Below are positions 1,791 through 22,670 of a DNA stretch of 64,000 bases, piece after piece. The number at the start of each line of letters is the position of its first letter. Within the stretch, counting starts at the first letter, position 1. The notes beneath the pieces are model-generated. The model saw only the letters and a list, made by a program, of their open reading frames with translations. It searched no databases and was not told the DNA's origin. A program made the translations under genes and the position numbers. Source of the stretch: Pocillopora damicornis (lineage: Eukaryota); contig NW_020844479.1 in NCBI RefSeq assembly GCF_003704095.1, positions 1-64,000 on the forward strand, written 5' to 3'.

Positions 1791-4396
1791 AACGTAAAAT
1801 GGGTTATTAATACCAATTTACCTTGTGATACTCTCCCACCTACGCAGTACTACAGTTTCTTTAGAAACTTACTCCCCTTATAAAACCAATCACAACTCTT
1901 TCTTCTGCGTTTTNNNNNNNNNNNNNNNNNNNNNNNNNNNNNNNNNNNNNNNNNNNNNNNNNNNNNNNNNNNNNNNNNNNNNNNNNNNNNNNNNNNNNNN
2001 NNNNNNNNNNNNNTTTTGAAGTGTACTACAAAGTTTGTTTACATTCCGATCATTCTTTGTGAATGACGAGGTTACATAACAAAATGTCATCTAATTCAAA
2101 TTTGCATATTGTTTTCCTTGAATCGTTTATTCTTTCTTCTAACACAAAAAGTCCGAAAGCCTATTTAAGATTTGTTTCCACAGTTAAAATTGGTAGGAAG
2201 TTTCTCAAGAACGCATTTTTGGTTGATAAACGAGTTCGTAAAGTTTTAACTTGGTTTTGATTGATGTTTGAGTTTTGGCTTAAATACGAACTACTTGCCG
2301 TAAAATAACTTGCCTGGGGAAGGGGAAGTTATATTTCAGGGGAAGTTTCGAAACGCCTCTTTAAAAATTTATTTCTTTTGATCAAAATAGTATCCGTGTT
2401 TTTGATTCTCCTAAGACGAAAAAATCTGAAAGCATTCTACTTTTTGGTTTTAACCTTCGACCGCCTCTACAGGCCAGCATGGTACGTAGGTAGACATTCT
2501 TAGCCTAACTAACCAACATAGATTTTGTGCATGCATCATCTCGAATCTTGAGAACAGCGGCCACATACACACATTCTAAGCCTGTTTATAGCAATCGTAA
2601 TTCTGTTACTTACCCGAGCTTAATTCTTTGTTTTCGTTTTCTTCCCATCCACTCCTATGCTTTATTTGGTAATTTTCCTCAAAGCTCTTTATCTAAAAAG
2701 GACCAAACCAACAATCTCGTTTATTCTAGTTCACATGCAGTTTGGGTTATAATCTGAATTCGGATAGACTTAGCCTTATACAGTAAAACAGTGCGAAAGT
2801 TTTCTGCCATGCAACCACATTTATCTTCGATGAATCAAACGCCTTTTCAGCTTGAACTAGTCCTGATTTATCTTTACATGTTTTACAGTAGATAGATTAT
2901 TTACAGGTGAACAGAATCATGGTGCACCAATCTCTATATGGTTTGGATAGACTACAATGCAGTTTATCGATAAAATTGCCCTTTATCGGTTCTGTAATAA
3001 TTTCATTTATCAACTCCCCCACGGAGACCCGAGTGAAGTATTTTTTGCAACGACCTAGTTCAAAACACAAGCACTGTTCAGAATTTTCTCATTTGAAAGG
3101 TCGACGACAATTTTCAAGTTGAACTCAACTCTTACCTTGTGTACTACAGCAGAAGACTTTCTGGGGAGCTGTCATTCATTGTCGAGTCTTCAAGCACAGA
3201 CCATTCCTCACAAGTTTCCAGCCACGCTTAAAGTCAGAATTTTTTTCCTTTACGACGTTTTCACTGAAAAGCGTAACAGTTCAGACCACGAGGAACCGTA
3301 AATGCAAATGATTGGAAAGATCCACACGTGAAAATTCAGACTTGCGAATGAACTGCGTGTGCGAGGTTGGTGTAAATTTGCATTCTAAGGTCTCAAAACG
3401 CTTATGCTGTTGAAAAAATGAAGGGGGGTGGGGAAGGAGGGGTCGGGAGAGGGGTTGGTGGTGTCTGCATTCTTCTTCCAAACTCGTGGAAAAAATTCTG
3501 ATAGTAATTTACATCAGTTATACTGATGAATAAAGAGGTTTGATTCAGTTTGACTTGCTGCTGAATATTGTAGAGAAAAAGCCTCTAAAATGCTACTACC
3601 GACTAATTATCCTCTTGGGATGATGCAATATTATAATAAGTAGGAACAATGCGCATGCGTACAGTAAAAGCTCCCACAATTGTGGGGGTTTGGTAAGTTA
3701 TATTTAATTGTGAAAACACATGTTAGGCTGAATGGTACGGCGATGCCCGGCATACGTGCTGAGTTACGGGGAGCTAAAGACCCGTGTTTCTCGTGATCAA
3801 GTAGAGAGACTCGCCTTGAATTTTTGGCTTGAGGGCTAGCCATCGCTTGTGGTGCCCTCGTAAATCAATTTCCTCTAGAATGAAGAAATATCGACGGAAA
3901 AAAGATTGGAAAAGATGCAAATAACCAATACTTATCTCCGTCTTTAAAGAGAATCTGTTACTTTCTTTCCCCAAAATTCCCCCTGCTCTCGACACTTCTG
4001 CATTCCTTGATAAGGTTGCAATAATACTGTGACCATGTCACACTCCTTTTTGCTAATGTCACGCCATAAGTGACGCGTGACACTTATAAAAAGAATTGTG
4101 TGACCGGTAGTTTTGGAGGTGTACAAAAAGTTTAGAGGATCCTTTAGAGGTCACTAAATTGCAAAGCTAAAAATTGCCACTTACTTACATTTCCCTTTTT
4201 TTAAATGGTTTATTAAGCATTATGTACAAAAAGCATTTGGCATAAATTAGCCTGCATTGCTGGTGGTTTTGCTGGCAATTTTGTGGGTGGTTTATAATTT
4301 CACGTCACCACACTTAGTAACAAGTGTGGAAGTTGCTCATCCCTTAAACTGATACAAATCTACCAGCTATACAGGCTAGACATAAATCAACAGAAA

Positions 4397-7300: not shown

Positions 7301-8270
7301 TACATCAATGTTATTAAGGATGTTAGGCAAGCCATGATGGCAATAGTATTAAGGATGTTGCAAAACAAAAGATCTCATGAGCAGAAAAATAACTCAGCAA
7401 ATGTGCTTTAAAACTTTGTACATGTCTTAACCATTCTCTGCAAAACAACAACATGAAATCCCAAATATTTGTGTGATCAGAGAACCAAGACCCTGACAAC
7501 AAATTATTTGAGTTTCCATTTGGAATTCAACTCTGCTCATGTACATTATGCTGAAGCTGAGGTGTGGTGCCATAAGAGACAGTAAGAGACATCTAGCCTT
7601 TGCAAAATTCTTCCTTCGACTATAACTACGTTTTTTGATTTACATCTTCTTTGACATCGCTGTCCTGACTGCTTAAGGTCCCTATTAAATGGTCAATACA
7701 CTGAGAAAGTCGAAAACTATGCCATAGTCTGAAATTAAACTAATCTTACTTAATACAGTTTCATTGAGCCGTTAGTCACAGTCCTGAAAAGTCAAAAAAT
7801 GACCCATAATGTCCAAATCAAACAGTGAGTCGCTTACCTATAAGGAACACAGTCCACAGTATGAAGACTTCATTAACACCATAATATACAAATAGTGTAT
7901 TCGTAAACAGCTCTTCAGCTGACCGCGACCTTACAGAGACAAATCTTATGTAGCCACGCATTCTAGAAATAAGCTTTCCTACAAATCGCACATATAAATC
8001 TGAAGTAAAAAAAGGAAATCCTTGGATCAAGAAATATGAAACAGTACTAACTTGTCTTCCTCCTCGCCAGTAGAATTACACCATTTCAGGAATGTCTTCA
8101 AAAGCGCGGTAATTCTGCGATCATCACCCGCACCTTCTCCATCAATCAACAGCCTCTTCCGAATGATATCATCTTAAAGTAGAAAACACACACAATCAAC
8201 TTTATATTGACAACACAAAATGGAAGTGTTTTTGCGTTTAAGTCCCCTCTGACTCACCGTCGGTTGCCAT
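4397..8270 (-). CDS. THOC7: THO complex subunit 7 (8 coding exons)
   Basis: Exons 8258-8270, 8052-8172, 6869-6996, 6399-6485, 6040-6097, 5791-5857, 5251-5320, 4397-4461. All are GT-AG and phase-consistent. Protein MATDDDIIRKRLLIDGEGAGDDRRI...RIRRNRQEYDALAKVITQHPER...LELRQKQFHLLINTIHELQ matches THOC7 signatures. Confidence 0.95.
4590..4795 (-). mobile_element. tRNA-derived SINE-like repeat in the last THOC7 intron
   Basis: Minus strand reads AGCTCAGTTGGTAAAGCAC...GGGTTCAAATCCC (A-box/B-box-like) followed by a T-run. The stems do not pair as a proper cloverleaf. Confidence 0.65.
7313..7688 (+). repeat. Dispersed ~370 bp non-autonomous repeat
   Basis: Shares blocks (GCAAAACAACAAC.TGA, GTAAGAGAC, CTGA.TGCTTAAGGTC) with a second copy at ~47648-47995. 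Confidence 0.6.
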
Positions 8271-8345
8271 CTTGAAACTAACAGAATTGTGCACCTGCGA
8301 GAGTCTGGGAAATAATTTTCTATTCGTTCGATGGTGTAGATACAC

Positions 8346-9173
8346 ATGATTTGTCTACCAACACCAAGAATGGTTTCTGTTCGTAATGTTGTTATAATCG
8401 TGAAGCAAATCTTGGAAGAGTGGATTGTTCGGGAGTCTGGAATACTGTCCAAAACACAATGCGAAACCTTGCTACGTTCTGAAGAGACTATCACTACCTT
8501 ACCTACAAAAAGAGGAAATTACCCGAGATATCCCCTTTATGAGGACATTTCAAAAAAGTTACATCAGTGGCTGTCCACTGGGAATTTTCCTGTAAAAAGC
8601 GAAGCTTGTGGATTACTTTCGGAGGAAAATTTTGTTCAAGAAAGAAAAAGAGTTTATGAAAAAGTTTCGCTGGTACTGGCCTCCCTTAACGATTCTTGGA
8701 CAGAGATTTCTGATGAAGAAAAACATCTTCAGTTTTCTTCTATCATAAAAATTCTTGGCGTTAGAGGATTGCTTGATCTGCTTAATATTCGTCACACGCA
8801 AGGAAGTGTTGATATTTTTCCTCCTCCTGTTAAAGTTCTAATAGAATCCTTCAACGAGAAACACAAACCAAATGCCAATTTGACAGTTGGTGCAAGGGCC
8901 TTGTCTAAACACTGCCACAGGGATTCCAGTGAATGGTGGGGTGCCTGTGCGGGTAGTGAACAAGTTAAGAACGAACATGCTATTACAGTTGTAATGCGTA
9001 TACTAGAAGATGCTTCATGGATTAATATCCACCTACTGCCACATGAGCTCAAAGTTATTGAAGTGAGGTGCACTGAAGGTTACGGTGCAAGATGGAGTCA
9101 TGATGGAAAAGTTTTCCGTGGATTTCTTGAGCCTCAAATGGAGGATGGTCATGCAGCAGGATGGAAGCATTGA
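8346..9173 (+). CDS. Intronless 275-aa uncharacterised protein with a conserved C-terminal GARALSKH...GYGARW...GFLEP...GWKH domain
   Basis: Clean ATG-to-TGA ORF. The C-terminal ~100 aa resemble, from memory, the C-terminal domain of plant ASCH-domain proteins. No ASCH domain is evident here. Confidence 0.85.
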   Translation: MICLPTPRMVSVRNVVIIVKQILEEWIVRESGILSKTQCETLLRSEETITTLPTKRGNYPRYPLYEDISKKLHQWLSTGNFPVKSEACGLLSEENFVQERKRVYEKVSLVLASLNDSWTEISDEEKHLQFSSIIKILGVRGLLDLLNIRHTQGSVDIFPPPVKVLIESFNEKHKPNANLTVGARALSKHCHRDSSEWWGACAGSEQVKNEHAITVVMRILEDASWINIHLLPHELKVIEVRCTEGYGARWSHDGKVFRGFLEPQMEDGHAAGWKH

Positions 9174-9334
9174 ACTTGTAGCTCACTGTCAATTTAAATT
9201 CTTTTTTCTAGCTAATATATATTTTCTTGTAAATACTTCTGAGAATCTTTTCTAATCTCCTGTTTGGTGATCATTGTATAATTATAATTAAATTTTTTGG
9301 AGGGGAAATTTCATTTAAATCACCCCTCAAAGTT

Positions 9335-9485
9335 AGGGATCAATTTTGGTATCTAAGCAACTGCACACCCTACCTACCTATCCCTCCCTAAGCCCAACCA
9401 TAGTCAATTGATGACAAGTTAGGGTTAACATTGGGTTGGGGGAGGGGCTGGTATGCTGTTGCCCAAATTCTGACATTAATCTGAA
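9335..9485. repeat. Palindromic MITE-like repeat (CCCTCCCCTAAGCCCAAC...GGGTTGGGGGAGGGG)
   Basis: Imperfect inverted arms around a short core, downstream of the 8346 ORF. Confidence 0.5.
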
Positions 9486-9867
9486 GTTAGTGTTAAGGTT
9501 ACTGTAATATTTAGCAAGTTCTTAAGATAACTTACTTGTGAAAATCAATACTCTTCTGGTAAAGTTTTACCACATTATTTACTGATATCTGTCAACATAA
9601 ATGTTTATCATAAAAGTACAAATTGTTAGGAAATATACATATTTGGAAATGATCCAAAGAAGTAATAAACAGCAGTTTTCTATCGCATCAGCAGAATCCA
9701 TGCAAATGCATAGAACTGAACCTCTTTGGTAAAAGTCAATAATCTTCCGGAAGAGACACTTCAATCCAGTTATTTTGTTTATTAATAGACCGCTGGCTAC
9801 AAACGTGCCAGCGAAGGGGTTTTGAGAAACTCGTTCCCAGGCCGACAGAGGTTCTTGACCCATGTAA

Positions 9868-12791
9868 ATGATGGCGGTTCGAATATGTATATTTCTGATA
9901 TTTTTCTCTGACTATTTCTCGATTTACTGCCGCGTTTCAGCATACAAAATTGTAAAAGTTGCAAACTACAACATTTGGAATGTTATGTTCCAGTGGGAAA
10001 CAAGAAAATACTTCATTGCGGAAATGGTAATTTTTCACGTTTTTTGATATAATTTCATATCCGTCTCTTGACATTAACATTCAACCTTCACATATTTATG
10101 TGTTTCCCGCTGTTTTGTTTATTTTTTTTTGGTAAGGCTATTCTTATAATCCCAGCGAAAATAGTCATTTGAAAGGTTAGGTGACTATTTTTCTGGCTAC
10201 GTTCAATTTAAAAAAGAGAAACAAATCAAAAGAGAACTATTTTAATCGATTTTTATATTTAACAAATTTAATCAAATTTAACGTTGTTAAATTGACGAAA
10301 GTTTTCGAAATTCATAAATATTAGAGATTCTTGATGTTGAAAAATCAAAGATCGCGAGATTCTTGCTCTTTTTCAATCTTTATAAAATGTTTGTTGGTGT
10401 TAGTAGGTAGCTGAGCCCGGTCAAATCTACCTGTCAGTTAACCCGTGTCAATGCCCGTGTCCACATGTTGGGAAGGGTTGAAATTTGTTTTATATTGACA
10501 TCAACTTGAAAGCTTGTTTGGGTTGGTACTTTCACTCAAATAACCATGTTGGATTTGTTAGTTTTGTTTTCACATTGTGACATACTGCTATTCTGTCAAG
10601 GGCACTCAAGTTTGTATTTATTTTTATTTTTGTTTTATGGTTTGCAATTTATTATTCCAGATAAATAAAATTAACCCAGATGTGATTGGTTTCCAAGAAG
10701 TGAGGGCTGATACTAAGGATGAAAGAAACCAGTTAACCGAGCTTCAAGAGTTAATTCCACGGTACAAACACCTAGTTTATCACCCTGTTTCCGTGGTTAC
10801 ACACCCAGCTGGTCAACAAGGCCCACCAGGGTGGGAACAGGAAGGCCTGGGACTACTCAGTAAACATCCCATAATACTAAGTCATGTTGTGAACCTTACC
10901 ATCGGGAAAGGTGGTGTTGATCGCAACAAGAGAGCTATACTTCATGCCCAAGTTGATATTGATGGTGATGAACTGGATATAACAGTGCTTCATTTATCTT
11001 ACGATAAAGCTCAGCAATGCCAAAATGCAGTGGATGTCATTAACTATATTGCATCAATGGGAAGTGAACGCTCTGTTTTACTGGGTGACTTCAATGCATA
11101 CAATGATTTCCATTGGCCTGTAAATGGAATAATGAAAGGGTCCTTTGACAAGCAAGGCCCATGCCACGCATCCAGTCATTTGGATCCACAGGGATTAAAC
11201 CAAGGATATGGCTTTGTGGATGCCTGGGTGACAGCAAATGGGAACAGCAAGGGATATACCTTCAGCAATATGGTGTGTTGTAGAAAGGTTTTTCTGCCAT
11301 GCTCTTGTATAAATGATCTTATCCTTTTTTTTTAATAGCATTTAATAATGTATATGAAAAAAAACTTGCTTCTGATTGGCTGAATGCAAAGTTGTTACAC
11401 TAATGTAAATTACAAATAGCGCACCCTTGCTTTCAAAACTTTTGTCTGTCTTAACTTCCAGTGATGTTTTTCCATCTACATTATTAACAAGTAATATCAT
11501 GATTCCTGTTGCAATTTGGTGTAATGAGCACTTGAAAATTTTTCAGATTCCAAATTGCACTTGCCCTACAGGCTTGTGCAATTTTGTTGTCTTTGAAAAA
11601 GACTAGTGCTTATTAACACCAAATTTTATTCAAAATCATGTTATCACCTATACAAATTTCATCCCCTCTTTCAGTTGTGCTGCCAAAACAGACTGCTTAA
11701 TATGCAGATTGCTGACAGGATTTGGTTTGCTGCTTAGCCTCCTATGCTTGCTGTTAAGTTGAAAAACAAAAAGCCAATACCTTCTTTACCAACGTCACTT
11801 TGACTTGTGCCCTATCCATTCCAAGAGCATTTTGCAGAAAAATTTTCCATTGGTTTATTTTGTCTGAACATTATCTGACTTAACCTTTTAACTCCCAAGA
11901 TCTCATTAGTAATTCTCCTTACTGTCTGCCATACAGTTCTTGTGATATTAGTTTGGAGAATTTGGTATTGGATCAACTCATAATCCCCTAATTGATATTT
12001 TTTCTTAATTCTCATAACTTGTCTCCTTGATTTTGTGTTGATATTGTAAGGAGAAATTCTGTCTTGGTCATTCATGGGAGTTAAAGGGTCAACAGTATCA
12101 TGTTCTTTTGGTTTCTTAACACTGATCTCAAAGCTCTTGCTAAGGGCACAAGCTAAAGATAAGCTTATTTTCTTTCCAGCCAGAGCCCGGACTCATTAGT
12201 CGGCCAGACAGGATCCTTGTTTCTTTAACTGGACTTCAAGTTGTGTCTGCTGAGATTCACGGAGATGGAAAAATCTACCAACAAAAGTACAGCTTGCAGA
12301 ATAAATGGCAAAGGCTTAAGAAAGCATACCTCATGGCCAAAGAAACTGCTTATGGTCCACGTTTTAAATACACTTGTCATCAGGACTGTGGCCCTCATGG
12401 ATCATGTCGGTGTGGTGTTTGTGTTAAAGGAGGAGATACAAATAACTGCGAGTTGCCCTTCTGCTTTGAATGCAATGCCGAGCACTTAAACAATTTTATC
12501 TTAATTTTTGTGCTATATTCCACAACTTTGGTATTTTTCCTGTACATTCTCATAAAAATGTTGATACAAAGATGTTTTTCAAAGACGAGAAGAGTGCATG
12601 CCAGGGTCTTGTTTTTGTTGTCGAATAGAACACTAGGAATAGTTGTGGTTTGTTTAATGGCTGCTCTTTACTTCATCACAATGACTTTGCTACAAGACAC
12701 CTTGGAAACTGTTAATGGAAGGATTGCAGAAGAAATGTTTCCTTCAGATCATATGATGGTCACTGCAAGCTTGAAGTTTACATATAGATAG
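9868..12791 (+). CDS. EEP (endonuclease/exonuclease/phosphatase) superfamily protein, ~460 aa, with a probable signal peptide, a Cys-rich module and two TM helices
   Basis: Exons 9868-10026, 10661-11272, 12180-12791, joined by phase-0 GT-AG introns. EEP motifs appear in order: NYNIWN, DVIGFQEV, GLLSKHPI, VLHLSY, LLGDFNA, FVDAW, YTF, RPDRIL, FPSDH. Confidence 0.9.
11880..12092 (+). mobile_element. piggyBac-like MITE (~210 bp)
   Basis: TTAACCTTTTAACTCCCA...TGGGAGTTAAAGGGTCAA terminal inverted repeats with TTAA-type ends. One of many copies in the window. Confidence 0.75.
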
Positions 12792-20430: not shown

Positions 20431-20912
20431 ATTTCCTTCTGAGGCTTGGGTTTTCTTGCGAAAACTTCATAAAATTACAGTTAGAAAAGTTGATCGGATG
20501 AAATCTACAAGAAAGGCTTCATTTTTTCACTGCTTCTTTGTTTTCTGAAGATTTCCTTTTATCAAATATTTAATGCAATCCTTAATCGACCCCATTCCTT
20601 TCTAGGGTGCTTTCCCCATATGCTGAAAGTAACGCTTGCGTCTACGTCAATTTTTTTCCGAGAGACCTGATTCTACAAGTCCACTTAGTTATTTGAACTC
20701 ATTGTGACCTTCGGCCGCATTCGTGTATTGAGTCGAAAACATCTTAAAGGTACGCTTTATCACTCTTAAATTATGGTTTTAGAGAGATCAATTGTGATTC
20801 TTTGTTTTTAATCACATTTTGCAGCTGTGAGGTCAAAGTCAAGCGGAGTTCTGTCCAGAAGACGTCGAACTGCTCAAACCTGTTGTAGTATTTTCCGTTT
20901 CGCCCAGACACG

Positions 20913-22670
20913 ATGCAATTCTCTTCTCTTTCGAACGGTAAAGAATCCTCTTTAAGCTCAAAAGATGCTTCTGCCCCAGTTACTCTCGATGTTTCTATCA
21001 CTACGGCTGTGATTCTGGCCACTCTTTCCTCCTTTCTGTTCTTCTTGGCTTGCATTATAGTTTTCATATATTTCAAATGGCGTCTATGTCGACACGTTGT
21101 GGAAACTCGTATCGGACTTGTGGTCTTTTTCCTCGGAGCGTTACTCACCCTCATTACAACCCTCAGCTCCTATGAAGAACAAGAAATTTATGCAGTGTAT
21201 CGCTTGACTCTCTTGGCCTCATGCGGAATTGGAGTGTTGATGATAGGTTGTGCAATGCTTTTCGAGAATCCTTCCCCTGACAGGCCGCTGGATGACTACG
21301 GCTACGAAAGACTCTCTGTTGGTTATATGCACGGTAGCTTGGGAATGATCATCTGGGTCATAACGATACCCCTCAGCATACTAGAGCTCTTCTTCGCCAT
21401 TGGAGCTGCTCGGAAAGCACCCAACACAATGTATGCTGCTGTGAGGTACACAGCTCTGGCGCAAAAGATTGTCCAAGCAAGCGTGTACTACTTTAGTCTG
21501 CGACACAAGGTTGCTAGAGGAGATATGCGCATGGCGTGTTCGTGGCTTTTCAAGATAATCTCCGTCTTTAATTTTGCTTTTTTTATCGACTCACTAGTAA
21601 CGTCAAATTCTGATAACGACTTTGTCCTAAGTCTGTTTGGCAATGGGTTCTCCATCGTGAAATCTGCATATAATGCCTTACTCATTGATTACAGACTGCT
21701 GTGCTGTTTGTTGTTTTTGGAGCATTCTTTGGAGTTGATGGATGTGCGCATAAACCGACCCATTGGAGATATATTATTTAACCCTGAAGCTAGTGAGGCA
21801 ATGATGCAAGATTCTTTGGCCTCTGCGGTTGTTAATGTGGAAATCTCGCATTCCTCTGGCTATGGATATGTCATTGGCCTCATTCTGGTTGCCATGCAAC
21901 TGGTAACTGGACTACAGTATCTTGGATTTGTGGGAGAGTGGACAAACATGTTCCCCATTCTAGCTTGTGGTGTTGTAATAATTTTTGGTCTCTTGCTACT
22001 CTCTGGAGACACAAGTTTCCCTGAAAACAACAGAGAGAGGAAATGGCGTGAGACTGAATCTAAGGCTATTGATATCATGGTGTGCTTTATGGGAACCATT
22101 GGCTTTATCTTCTGGTTCATGAAAGCTTCCTACTGTGGTCTTTGGGCCTCACAATACTCATCAACAACTGACATTGAGTTTTATCAGTATCTCTCTTGGA
22201 CAACAATAAAAAACTTTGCTTATGCAATTGTAATCATCTTTCAGCTTTACTTCTTTGTTAAAATGGGTCCACATTTTGGGTGTGACCGTGAAAGCAGTCG
22301 TCAGAGGGCAAAACACTTTTACGTCACAACTATCATGATGGCTCTGTTTGCACTGCTCATATCACTTGTCATTGATGAATTCAATGGCCGAGTAGAAAAG
22401 CTTCTTGCTGAAGCACACATCAGCAGCACCATGTCAATATTTTTCCAGGCAGCAGCCCCCATACATCTTGGCTTTAGCTTGCACATGTTTCTGCATTTCT
22501 TCATTATGAGCAGAAGATTGTCTCAGTTTCAGTACAACTGGCAATATAACCAGGCAGAAGAACATCAACATAGTCAACAGTCCTCATCAGGGAACACTGG
22601 TGGTAACAGTACATCATCAAATGCTGAAACAGGGGATGAAAGACAGCCACTGATTTCCCACCCAACGTGA
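20913..22670 (+). CDS. Intronless 585-aa multipass membrane protein, divergent otopetrin-like (proton channel family)
   Basis: About 13 hydrophobic segments forming two halves. Otopetrin-like motifs: KIVQASVY, VFNFAFF, LIDYRLLC (cf. IEYSLIC), SGYGYVIG, IDIMVCFMGTIG, IFQLYFF, PIHLGFSLH (cf. PLxIFYRFH). The ORF is certain; the family call rests on motif recognition. Confidence 0.75.
   Translation: MQFSSLSNGKESSLSSKDASAPVTLDVSITTAVILATLSSFLFFLACIIVFIYFKWRLCRHVVETRIGLVVFFLGALLTLITTLSSYEEQEIYAVYRLTLLASCGIGVLMIGCAMLFENPSPDRPLDDYGYERLSVGYMHGSLGMIIWVITIPLSILELFFAIGAARKAPNTMYAAVRYTALAQKIVQASVYYFSLRHKVARGDMRMACSWLFKIISVFNFAFFIDSLVTSNSDNDFVLSLFGNGFSIVKSAYNALLIDYRLLCCLLFLEHSLELMDVRINRPIGDILFNPEASEAMMQDSLASAVVNVEISHSSGYGYVIGLILVAMQLVTGLQYLGFVGEWTNMFPILACGVVIIFGLLLLSGDTSFPENNRERKWRETESKAIDIMVCFMGTIGFIFWFMKASYCGLWASQYSSTTDIEFYQYLSWTTIKNFAYAIVIIFQLYFFVKMGPHFGCDRESSRQRAKHFYVTTIMMALFALLISLVIDEFNGRVEKLLAEAHISSTMSIFFQAAAPIHLGFSLHMFLHFFIMSRRLSQFQYNWQYNQAEEHQHSQQSSSGNTGGNSTSSNAETGDERQPLISHPT

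Follow-up and report, generated by a model that had tools for sequence, protein, structure and literature searches.

The single-exon gene at 8346..9173 (+) of the Pocillopora damicornis window (the whole stretch of 64,000 nucleotides that was analysed) encodes a protein whose C-terminal domain, judged from its sequence and a predicted model, is almost certainly homologous to the tRNase toxin tips of bacteria and adopts the same fold. The same grounds make it very probable that the coral protein is an active RNase, and analogy with its relatives makes tRNA a fairly likely substrate. Our preferred reading, to which we give about an even chance, is an intracellular, His-dependent and metal-independent tRNA endonuclease that was inherited from early eukaryotes and works in housekeeping quality control or cut-and-repair.

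Gene structure, transcripts and neighbours

The open reading frame, re-read from the sequence, encodes 275 amino acids and contains the motifs quoted earlier. Translation likely starts at Met9 (nucleotide 8370), which would give 267 amino acids, as 198 of the 213 relatives aligned at that column have a methionine there. A search of the coral's own genome (234 Mb) matched the frame once, so the gene is single-copy. Neither Pfam, which detected no domain, nor NCBIfam holds a family for the protein, and none of the six proteins submitted to PADLOC was matched. Eleven allelic differences occur within the frame, eight synonymous and three non-synonymous (T50S, D67E and H233N), and none of them hits an invariant residue.

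Eighteen sequencing runs contain the stretch, 11 of them recorded as RNA. Four polyA/oligo-dT runs from three studies were mapped over window positions 7700-10100. Unspliced RNA contigs cross the frame at 8342-9334 (X3) and 8367-9724 (X1) without joints, whereas the neighbouring genes show spliced ends at 8052 and 10030 in the same runs; the four runs lack contig cover at 8186-8266. The 3' untranslated region (9174..9750, +) is covered by joint-free contigs ending at 9334, 9495, 9724 and 9750. As these data are contigs, neither strand nor level can be read from them. The gene is thus real and transcribed, and it is intronless, as the original prediction had read from a single-exon frame among spliced neighbours.

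The divergent neighbour is THOC7, whose first exons lie at 8052..8270 (-). Its assignment is based on a Pfam match (THOC7, E 6e-9) on 8054-8170, with exon 1 read from the sequence and a spliced RNA end at 8052. The two genes are arranged head-to-head with roughly 100 bases between the THOC7 ATG (8270) and Met9, which implies a shared promoter region. The THOC7 intron beside exon 2 (window 7700-8081) is read through in RNA contigs of all four runs and also occurs in spliced form in two of them, possibly reflecting intron retention or pre-mRNA. Downstream of the coral gene lies an exo-endo-phosphatase gene. The locus, flanked by these two neighbours, has no adjacent cognate immunity gene, and RNA-repair genes are not among the gene's neighbours. 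Neither an N-terminal secretion signal nor a repeat stalk was found in the 275-residue protein with Pfam, and a crude hydropathy scan gave no strong N-terminal hydrophobic stretch. Elsewhere in the window a further long single frame of 593 amino acids (20889-22670, +) carries hydrophobic, membrane-like segments.

Fold, candidate active site and domain architecture

The BECR colicin-like RNase domain comprises residues 166-262 (8841..9131, +). An AlphaFold2 model of the coral protein reached a pLDDT of 92.6 and a pTM of 0.90. The top PDB sequence match of the single coral protein was chain 6D7Y_A (E 0.0012), which was again best for a 108-sequence profile (E 6.4e-7) and also for a profile of the stand-alone bacterial proteins described below and for an RHS toxin tip (E 1.9e-5 in either case). 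Foldseek ranked 6D7Y first with a probability of 1.00 and a TM of 0.82 on the target, at an E of 1.2e-3, just above the 0.001 line. In a VIA search over 48,161 chains, 6D7Y_A was the sole chain with a Z of at least 8 (Z 13.6, rmsd 1.8 Å, 92 of 92 residues, 29% identity). The runners-up were colicin D (Z 7.0 and 6.4) and other CDI tRNase toxins, an order that was repeated in a second run; colicin D superposed with an rmsd of 2.7 over 86 aligned residues at 5-9% identity. The secondary structure of the predicted model (helices 181-190 and 205-221, strands 225-231, 235-241, 247-251 and 257-261) follows the colicin-like BECR layout of a pre-alpha helix, an alpha helix and a four-stranded meander. 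The Ser/Thr on strand 4 of many BECR enzymes is absent from the coral protein and from 6D7Y, and is described as not universal among BECR enzymes (Zhang 2012, PMC3482391). The original prediction had likened the tail to a bacterial toxin RNase module and named AlphaFold and Foldseek as a check. The model places the 6D7Y CDI tRNase first, VIA adds colicin D, and the module can now be specified as a His-bearing domain of BECR/colicin type, related to CDI and RHS tips. An identity with Ntox49, which is listed in plants and stramenopiles (Zhang 2012, PMC3482391), was also considered; it was dropped once Ntox49 had been equated with DUF4258 (bioRxiv 10.64898/2026.08.28.747851), for which the coral protein has no Pfam match at E<=1.

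The candidate active site centres on Lys188-His189 (8907..8912, +). Residues of the 6D7Y chain carry the numbers 3352-3443, and E262 aligns with the last residue of its 96-residue sequence. From this, the histidine of the ALSKH motif falls at position 3372; this placement assumes continuous chain numbering, and no other register puts a histidine there. His3372 is described as the key catalytic residue of the tRNA(Gln)/tRNA(Pro) nuclease CdiA-CT (review, PMC9086364), and H3372A has been used as a catalytic null (meeting abstract, PMC12791740). Coral His189 is predicted to be catalytic because it aligns with this residue. Colicin-like BECR enzymes, most of which target tRNA, are characterized by a conserved histidine on the pre-alpha helix, often after a lysine and with Lys/Arg nearby (bioRxiv 10.64898/2026.08.28.747851). 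The coral protein shows the same arrangement, with K188-H189 on the pre-alpha helix and R192, R241 and R249 as nearby basic residues.

These residues are nearly invariant. Among 276 aligned proteins, which were chosen by likeness to the query so that their conservation is partly selected, H189 is retained in 273/274, K188 in 274/275, R192 in 273/274, E239 in 275/275, R241 in 274/275 and R249 in 274/274, and E262 behaves alike. The His, Arg and Glu positions on which the original prediction depended are therefore conserved. In 45 distinct stand-alone bacterial proteins K188, H189 and R192 are present throughout (45/45), and E239, R241 and R249 in 44/45; these six positions lay outside the search patterns used for the bacterial proteins. 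A common fold does not show function and catalysis is here predicted from a model, so the protein might be an adaptor on a toxin fold that binds tRNA or RNA without catalytic activity. However, in eukaryotes and bacteria alike hardly any variation is seen at the equivalent of the catalytic histidine and at five charged residues near it, which makes such an adaptor quite improbable. Behind the domain lies a eukaryote-type C-terminal tail (9132..9170, +) with conserved G268, H269 (259/272), W273 and H275 (266/272); no His-bearing tail occurs in the 45 stand-alone bacterial proteins. His229, His269 and His275 belong to the eukaryotic members and are absent from the bacterial set, although the contrast at position 229 is partly circular since this position lies inside a search pattern.

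In front of the RNase domain the model shows an N-terminal helical domain (residues 9-160; 8370..8825, +), which is common to the stand-alone bacterial relatives from about residue 65. A profile-profile comparison of the coral family with these proteins matched query residues 65-267, including N-domain and linker, with a probability of 99.9. The conserved RxTxGS...PP linker (residues 149-160; 8790..8825, +) retains T151 in 259/266, G153 in 259/266 and P159 in 258/265 proteins, and its arginine and threonine in 45/45 bacterial relatives. For the fold of the N-domain the best Z was 4.4, from a VIA search with the whole model rather than with the domain folded alone, and no atlas match was found.

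The original prediction also connected the tail with plant ASCH-domain proteins and regarded the coral gene as one without the ASCH domain. ASCH-bearing relatives do exist, as the domain was found in 4 of the 39 long relatives scanned, which contained no other sensor-domain fusion, and the coral protein has no ASCH match (PF04266) at E<=1. In plant members the ASCH sits between two helical blocks of the common N-terminal domain, and in the IQ-TREE analysis two ASCH-bearing relatives group with Selaginella. The domain is thus best read as an insertion in a green-plant subset, and its absence from the coral protein is not a loss.

According to the mechanism that we propose from BECR chemistry, His189 would act as acid/base in a metal-independent cleavage of tRNA, while Lys188, Arg192, Arg241 and Arg249 would hold phosphates. 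Cleavage would leave 2',3'-cyclic phosphate and 5'-OH ends. Such ends are the kind re-joined by RtcB. The helical N-domain, the linker and the His-rich tail may restrain or aim the enzyme and so replace an immunity protein, and the plant ASCH may add substrate recognition. The choice of tRNA follows from the nearest relatives and from the colicin-like members, which mostly cut tRNA.

Distribution, bacterial relatives and proposed role

At E<=0.001, 233 relatives were found among 567 candidates, and the C-terminal 104 amino acids gave 934 clusters at 50% identity. At the level of sequence, the motifs of the coral protein are far beyond chance. Thirty proteins were looked up by name, and 14 clusters gave an organism name. 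Among the matches listed, the closest named relative is a Stylophora protein (79% identical), followed by a graded series through animals, which comprises cnidarians, sponges, molluscs, annelids, nemerteans, echinoderms, a hemichordate and a flatworm. The same lists name three choanoflagellates, chytrids, Mucoromycota and Glomeromycota, and further Physarum, Guillardia, Alphamonas, a diatom, chlorophytes, Closterium and Selaginella. No vertebrate, insect, nematode or yeast is named among the matches listed (120 of the 233 and 150 of the 934, most of them unnamed). The family is therefore not the patchy animal family that had been supposed, but is spread over eukaryotic supergroups. Sponge-like relatives are spliced, which identifies the intronless state as a lineage trait and, together with the grouping of the coral protein with cnidarians, means that it is no sign of recent transfer. 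In one sponge-like copy (L004:5218-5554) the last two exons are tandemly duplicated, the second copy with a stop codon. A GTDB scan gave five loci, four of which (L002, L003, L004 and L005) resemble eukaryotic contigs in bacterial bins, two being spliced and the others having eukaryote-like neighbours; they likely represent bin contamination and were excluded from the bacterial count. No relative was found in viral contigs and phage records.

Bacterial relatives are of two kinds, toxin tips and stand-alone two-domain proteins. Many of the 87 longer relatives are annotated as RHS or HINT. An RHS protein of more than 1,400 amino acids in L006 has RHS repeats and carries such a toxin tip. A small frame without a Pfam family (L006:4254-4478) starts one base after its stop codon and probably encodes an immunity protein. 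Orphan CdiA-type tips occur on plasmids, and a Cronobacter plasmid carries an orphan VENN-type tip from this domain family (L082:6950-7402) that is interrupted by a stop codon. The stand-alone proteins have about 216-250 amino acids and no secretion stalk; this two-domain form is new here. Six of 401 genomes from the phylum to which a Planctomycetota record belongs carry it, as do 47 metagenome loci; scans of two further phyla, with 401 and 51 genomes, yielded none.

Trees across eukaryotes and bacteria, as the original prediction had suggested, recovered the eukaryotes as one clade in one of two analyses. In FastTree (213 of 361 domain sequences after a redundancy filter) the RHS tips (100) are separated from the eukaryotic and stand-alone proteins (100), with an unresolved base at which the eukaryotes do not form one clade. 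A quick IQ-TREE analysis of 76 rows (33 eukaryotic, 25 stand-alone and 18 of the 87 tips) and 142 columns, with SH-aLRT as the only support and the root placed on the toxin tips by choice, placed the eukaryotes in a single clade (SH-aLRT 99) that lies beside the stand-alone proteins or among them. Within it the coral protein lies next to Stylophora and Nematostella, far from the toxin tips. The original prediction had left retention and transfer side by side; the sequences favour a single early origin in eukaryotes, and a recent transfer into corals is disfavoured by the spliced sponge-like kin and the cnidarian grouping. The intronless structure and a tblastn match of the C-domain to an orphan tip in a cdi locus (E 3e-3) might suggest that the gene is a contaminant, was transferred recently from a bacterial toxin or encodes a toxin secreted by the coral. 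However, the gene has spliced coral genes on both sides, is transcribed in polyA libraries and belongs to the graded animal series with the cnidarians, and a secreted toxin is opposed by the hydropathy scan. This explanation is largely refuted and appears very improbable.

The neighbourhoods of the stand-alone genes were analysed with our own calls of reading frames and clustering, with Pfam on 39 and 68 chosen frames; many loci are short. In the 47 loci the neighbours include DUF434/DUF5616 (NYN nuclease) in 21, TatD in 17, a zinc-ribbon SDR in 16, RlaP in 6, RtcB in 4, Rnl2 and an R2K ATP-grasp in 2 each and a PNKP ligase/kinase/phosphatase in 1; a DEDD exonuclease also occurs. DUF434 proteins have been predicted to be NYN nucleases, with a proposed role in maturing tRNA or rRNA (PMC5499597), and RlaP takes its name from an association with RNA ligases (bioRxiv 10.64898/2025.12.29.696909). 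RtcB, RlaP, Rnl2 or PNKP stand beside the gene in 11 of the 47 loci by raw count, representing three different ligase systems; these 11 loci form about five groups at 70% identity, and two loci are identical. All repair-gene loci that were included in the tree fall within one low-GC bacterial subclade. No repair gene was found among the frames scanned in the 11 high-GC loci, nor in the bacterial rows nearest the eukaryotes (L041, and L029 with only 1.2 kb). The link to RNA repair may thus represent one recruitment in a sister lineage. In L046 (3-1444) PNKP ligase, kinase and phosphatase are encoded as separate frames, with TatD, DUF434, the gene and RlaP downstream of them. The order tyrS - gene - HIT - ileS occurs in two genomes (among L011, L013, L022 and L034); in L022 the stand-alone gene precedes HIT, and in L034 a class II (Asp-type) tRNA synthetase is encoded downstream of it. 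A small Barstar-like gene is located directly upstream in L039 (3604-3915) and L040, with a weak Pfam match (E 5e-6) from one sequence pair; its product could be an inhibitor.

The operon company of RtcB, Rnl2, PNKP, RlaP, TatD and DEDD exonuclease would also suit an end-processing enzyme that opens 2',3'-cyclic phosphates or trims broken RNA ends before ligation, and so would the eukaryote-specific histidines, with the reservation made above for position 229. Since the pocket residues common with the endonuclease 6D7Y are retained and no likeness to a phosphodiesterase was seen, this is improbable. The main rival of the housekeeping reading is a latent defence or stress tRNase, which the N-domain holds off until infection or stress frees it and translation stops; in that case the neighbouring bacterial ligase genes would serve self-repair or act as antitoxins. 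PrrC, Schlafen and SAMD9 are comparators for such an enzyme. The closest solved relative, 6D7Y, is a toxin that cleaves eukaryotic tRNA (PMC12791740). RlaP-type nucleotidyltransferases and the Barstar-like gene of L039/L040 flank bacterial relatives, and the sparse bacterial distribution, with six carriers in one phylum and no protein of the type in 401 genomes of another, also fits defence. On the other hand, the coral gene is single-copy, its key residues are near-invariant across supergroups, the long relatives show only ASCH fusions, PADLOC matched 0/6 proteins and the start lies about 100 bases from the ATG of a housekeeping gene. We therefore consider defence unlikely, though not negligibly so. 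The balance is tilted towards housekeeping by the single copy, the near-invariance, the promoter region shared with THOC7 and the presence of RNA-repair genes next to bacterial kin; a housekeeping or repair role, argued by analogy from conservation, copy number and sister-clade neighbourhoods, stands at roughly equal chances.

The coral genome also encodes an SDR (L069:1501-3318, -, contig C2727) as a single frame of 606 amino acids that is 43-45% identical (E 1e-83) to the operon SDR, which is encoded immediately after the bacterial relatives in 16 of the 47 loci. Fragments of this frame were seen in three of the four RNA runs. From its sequence, the coral SDR is a possible co-inherited partner of the RNase-fold gene. 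It is no fixed partner, because in another bacterial group only two of five genomes contain the SDR and, where checked, it lies far from the gene. DUF5616 was not found in the coral genome. A more far-reaching scenario, which we put forward tentatively and regard as rather unlikely in its entirety, is that bacteria domesticated a toxin-derived tRNA endonuclease as the cutting half of a cut-and-repair module, which entered eukaryotes once near their root and was retained in lineages as far apart as corals and plants, perhaps together with the zinc-ribbon SDR.

Comparison with known systems

Neither the fold class nor the bacterial toxin is new. In the literature searched, no paper links the eukaryotic family to a nuclease fold; together with the lack of a Pfam or NCBIfam match this agrees with the original view of an uncharacterised family. 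Nor was a paper found that combines at least three of RtcB, TatD, RlaP, COG2454 and DUF434. The main text of the 2026 BECR classification (bioRxiv 10.64898/2026.08.28.747851) does not mention 6D7Y, PABL017, ASCH, plant, metazoa or animal. No matching clade was identified in the available text of Zhang 2012 (PMC3482391), and the available portions of PMC7641849 and bioRxiv 10.64898/2026.09.30.755834 contain nothing on the family. The family may already be listed in a supplement or database, to which our guess gives clearly less than an even chance.

Few tRNA endonucleases are known in eukaryotes, to our knowledge. An unannotated family spanning several supergroups can thus be given a fold and a predicted catalytic residue, together with a probable class of substrate and a hypothesis on its pathway, and the stand-alone bacterial form would provide a route from a toxin of bacterial warfare to cellular housekeeping.

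The plant "RNA-binding ASCH domain protein" family, which we take to be PANTHER PTHR34204, shares the N-terminal blocks, the linker and the C-terminal domain in its ASCH-bearing relatives, but is named for the inserted domain found in just four of the 39 long relatives scanned. The literature searched assigns it no nuclease fold or activity; it may now be explained as a predicted nuclease into which a reader domain has been inserted. In the 11 loci, bacterial relatives occur in neighbourhoods of the RNA-repair operon type (RtcB, RlaP, Rnl2, PNKP), whereas the coral gene is without repair neighbours. With CdiA-CT of P. aeruginosa PABL017 (6D7Y) the coral protein shares the whole 92-residue fold, the ALSKH helix with the catalytic histidine, the GxG-R hairpin and the FxGF last strand. 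In contrast to this toxin it lacks a filamentous stalk and a secretion signal and has no immunity gene next to it, it adds the N-terminal helical domain, the RxT linker, a WxNxH strand and the His-rich tail, and its gene is single-copy and conserved instead of polymorphic. Colicin D and the colicin-like BECR enzymes share the pre-helix with Lys-His, the helix and the four-stranded meander. That group consists mainly of exported antibacterial effectors of bacteria and archaea (bioRxiv 10.64898/2026.08.28.747851), whereas the coral family is mainly eukaryotic and apparently intracellular.
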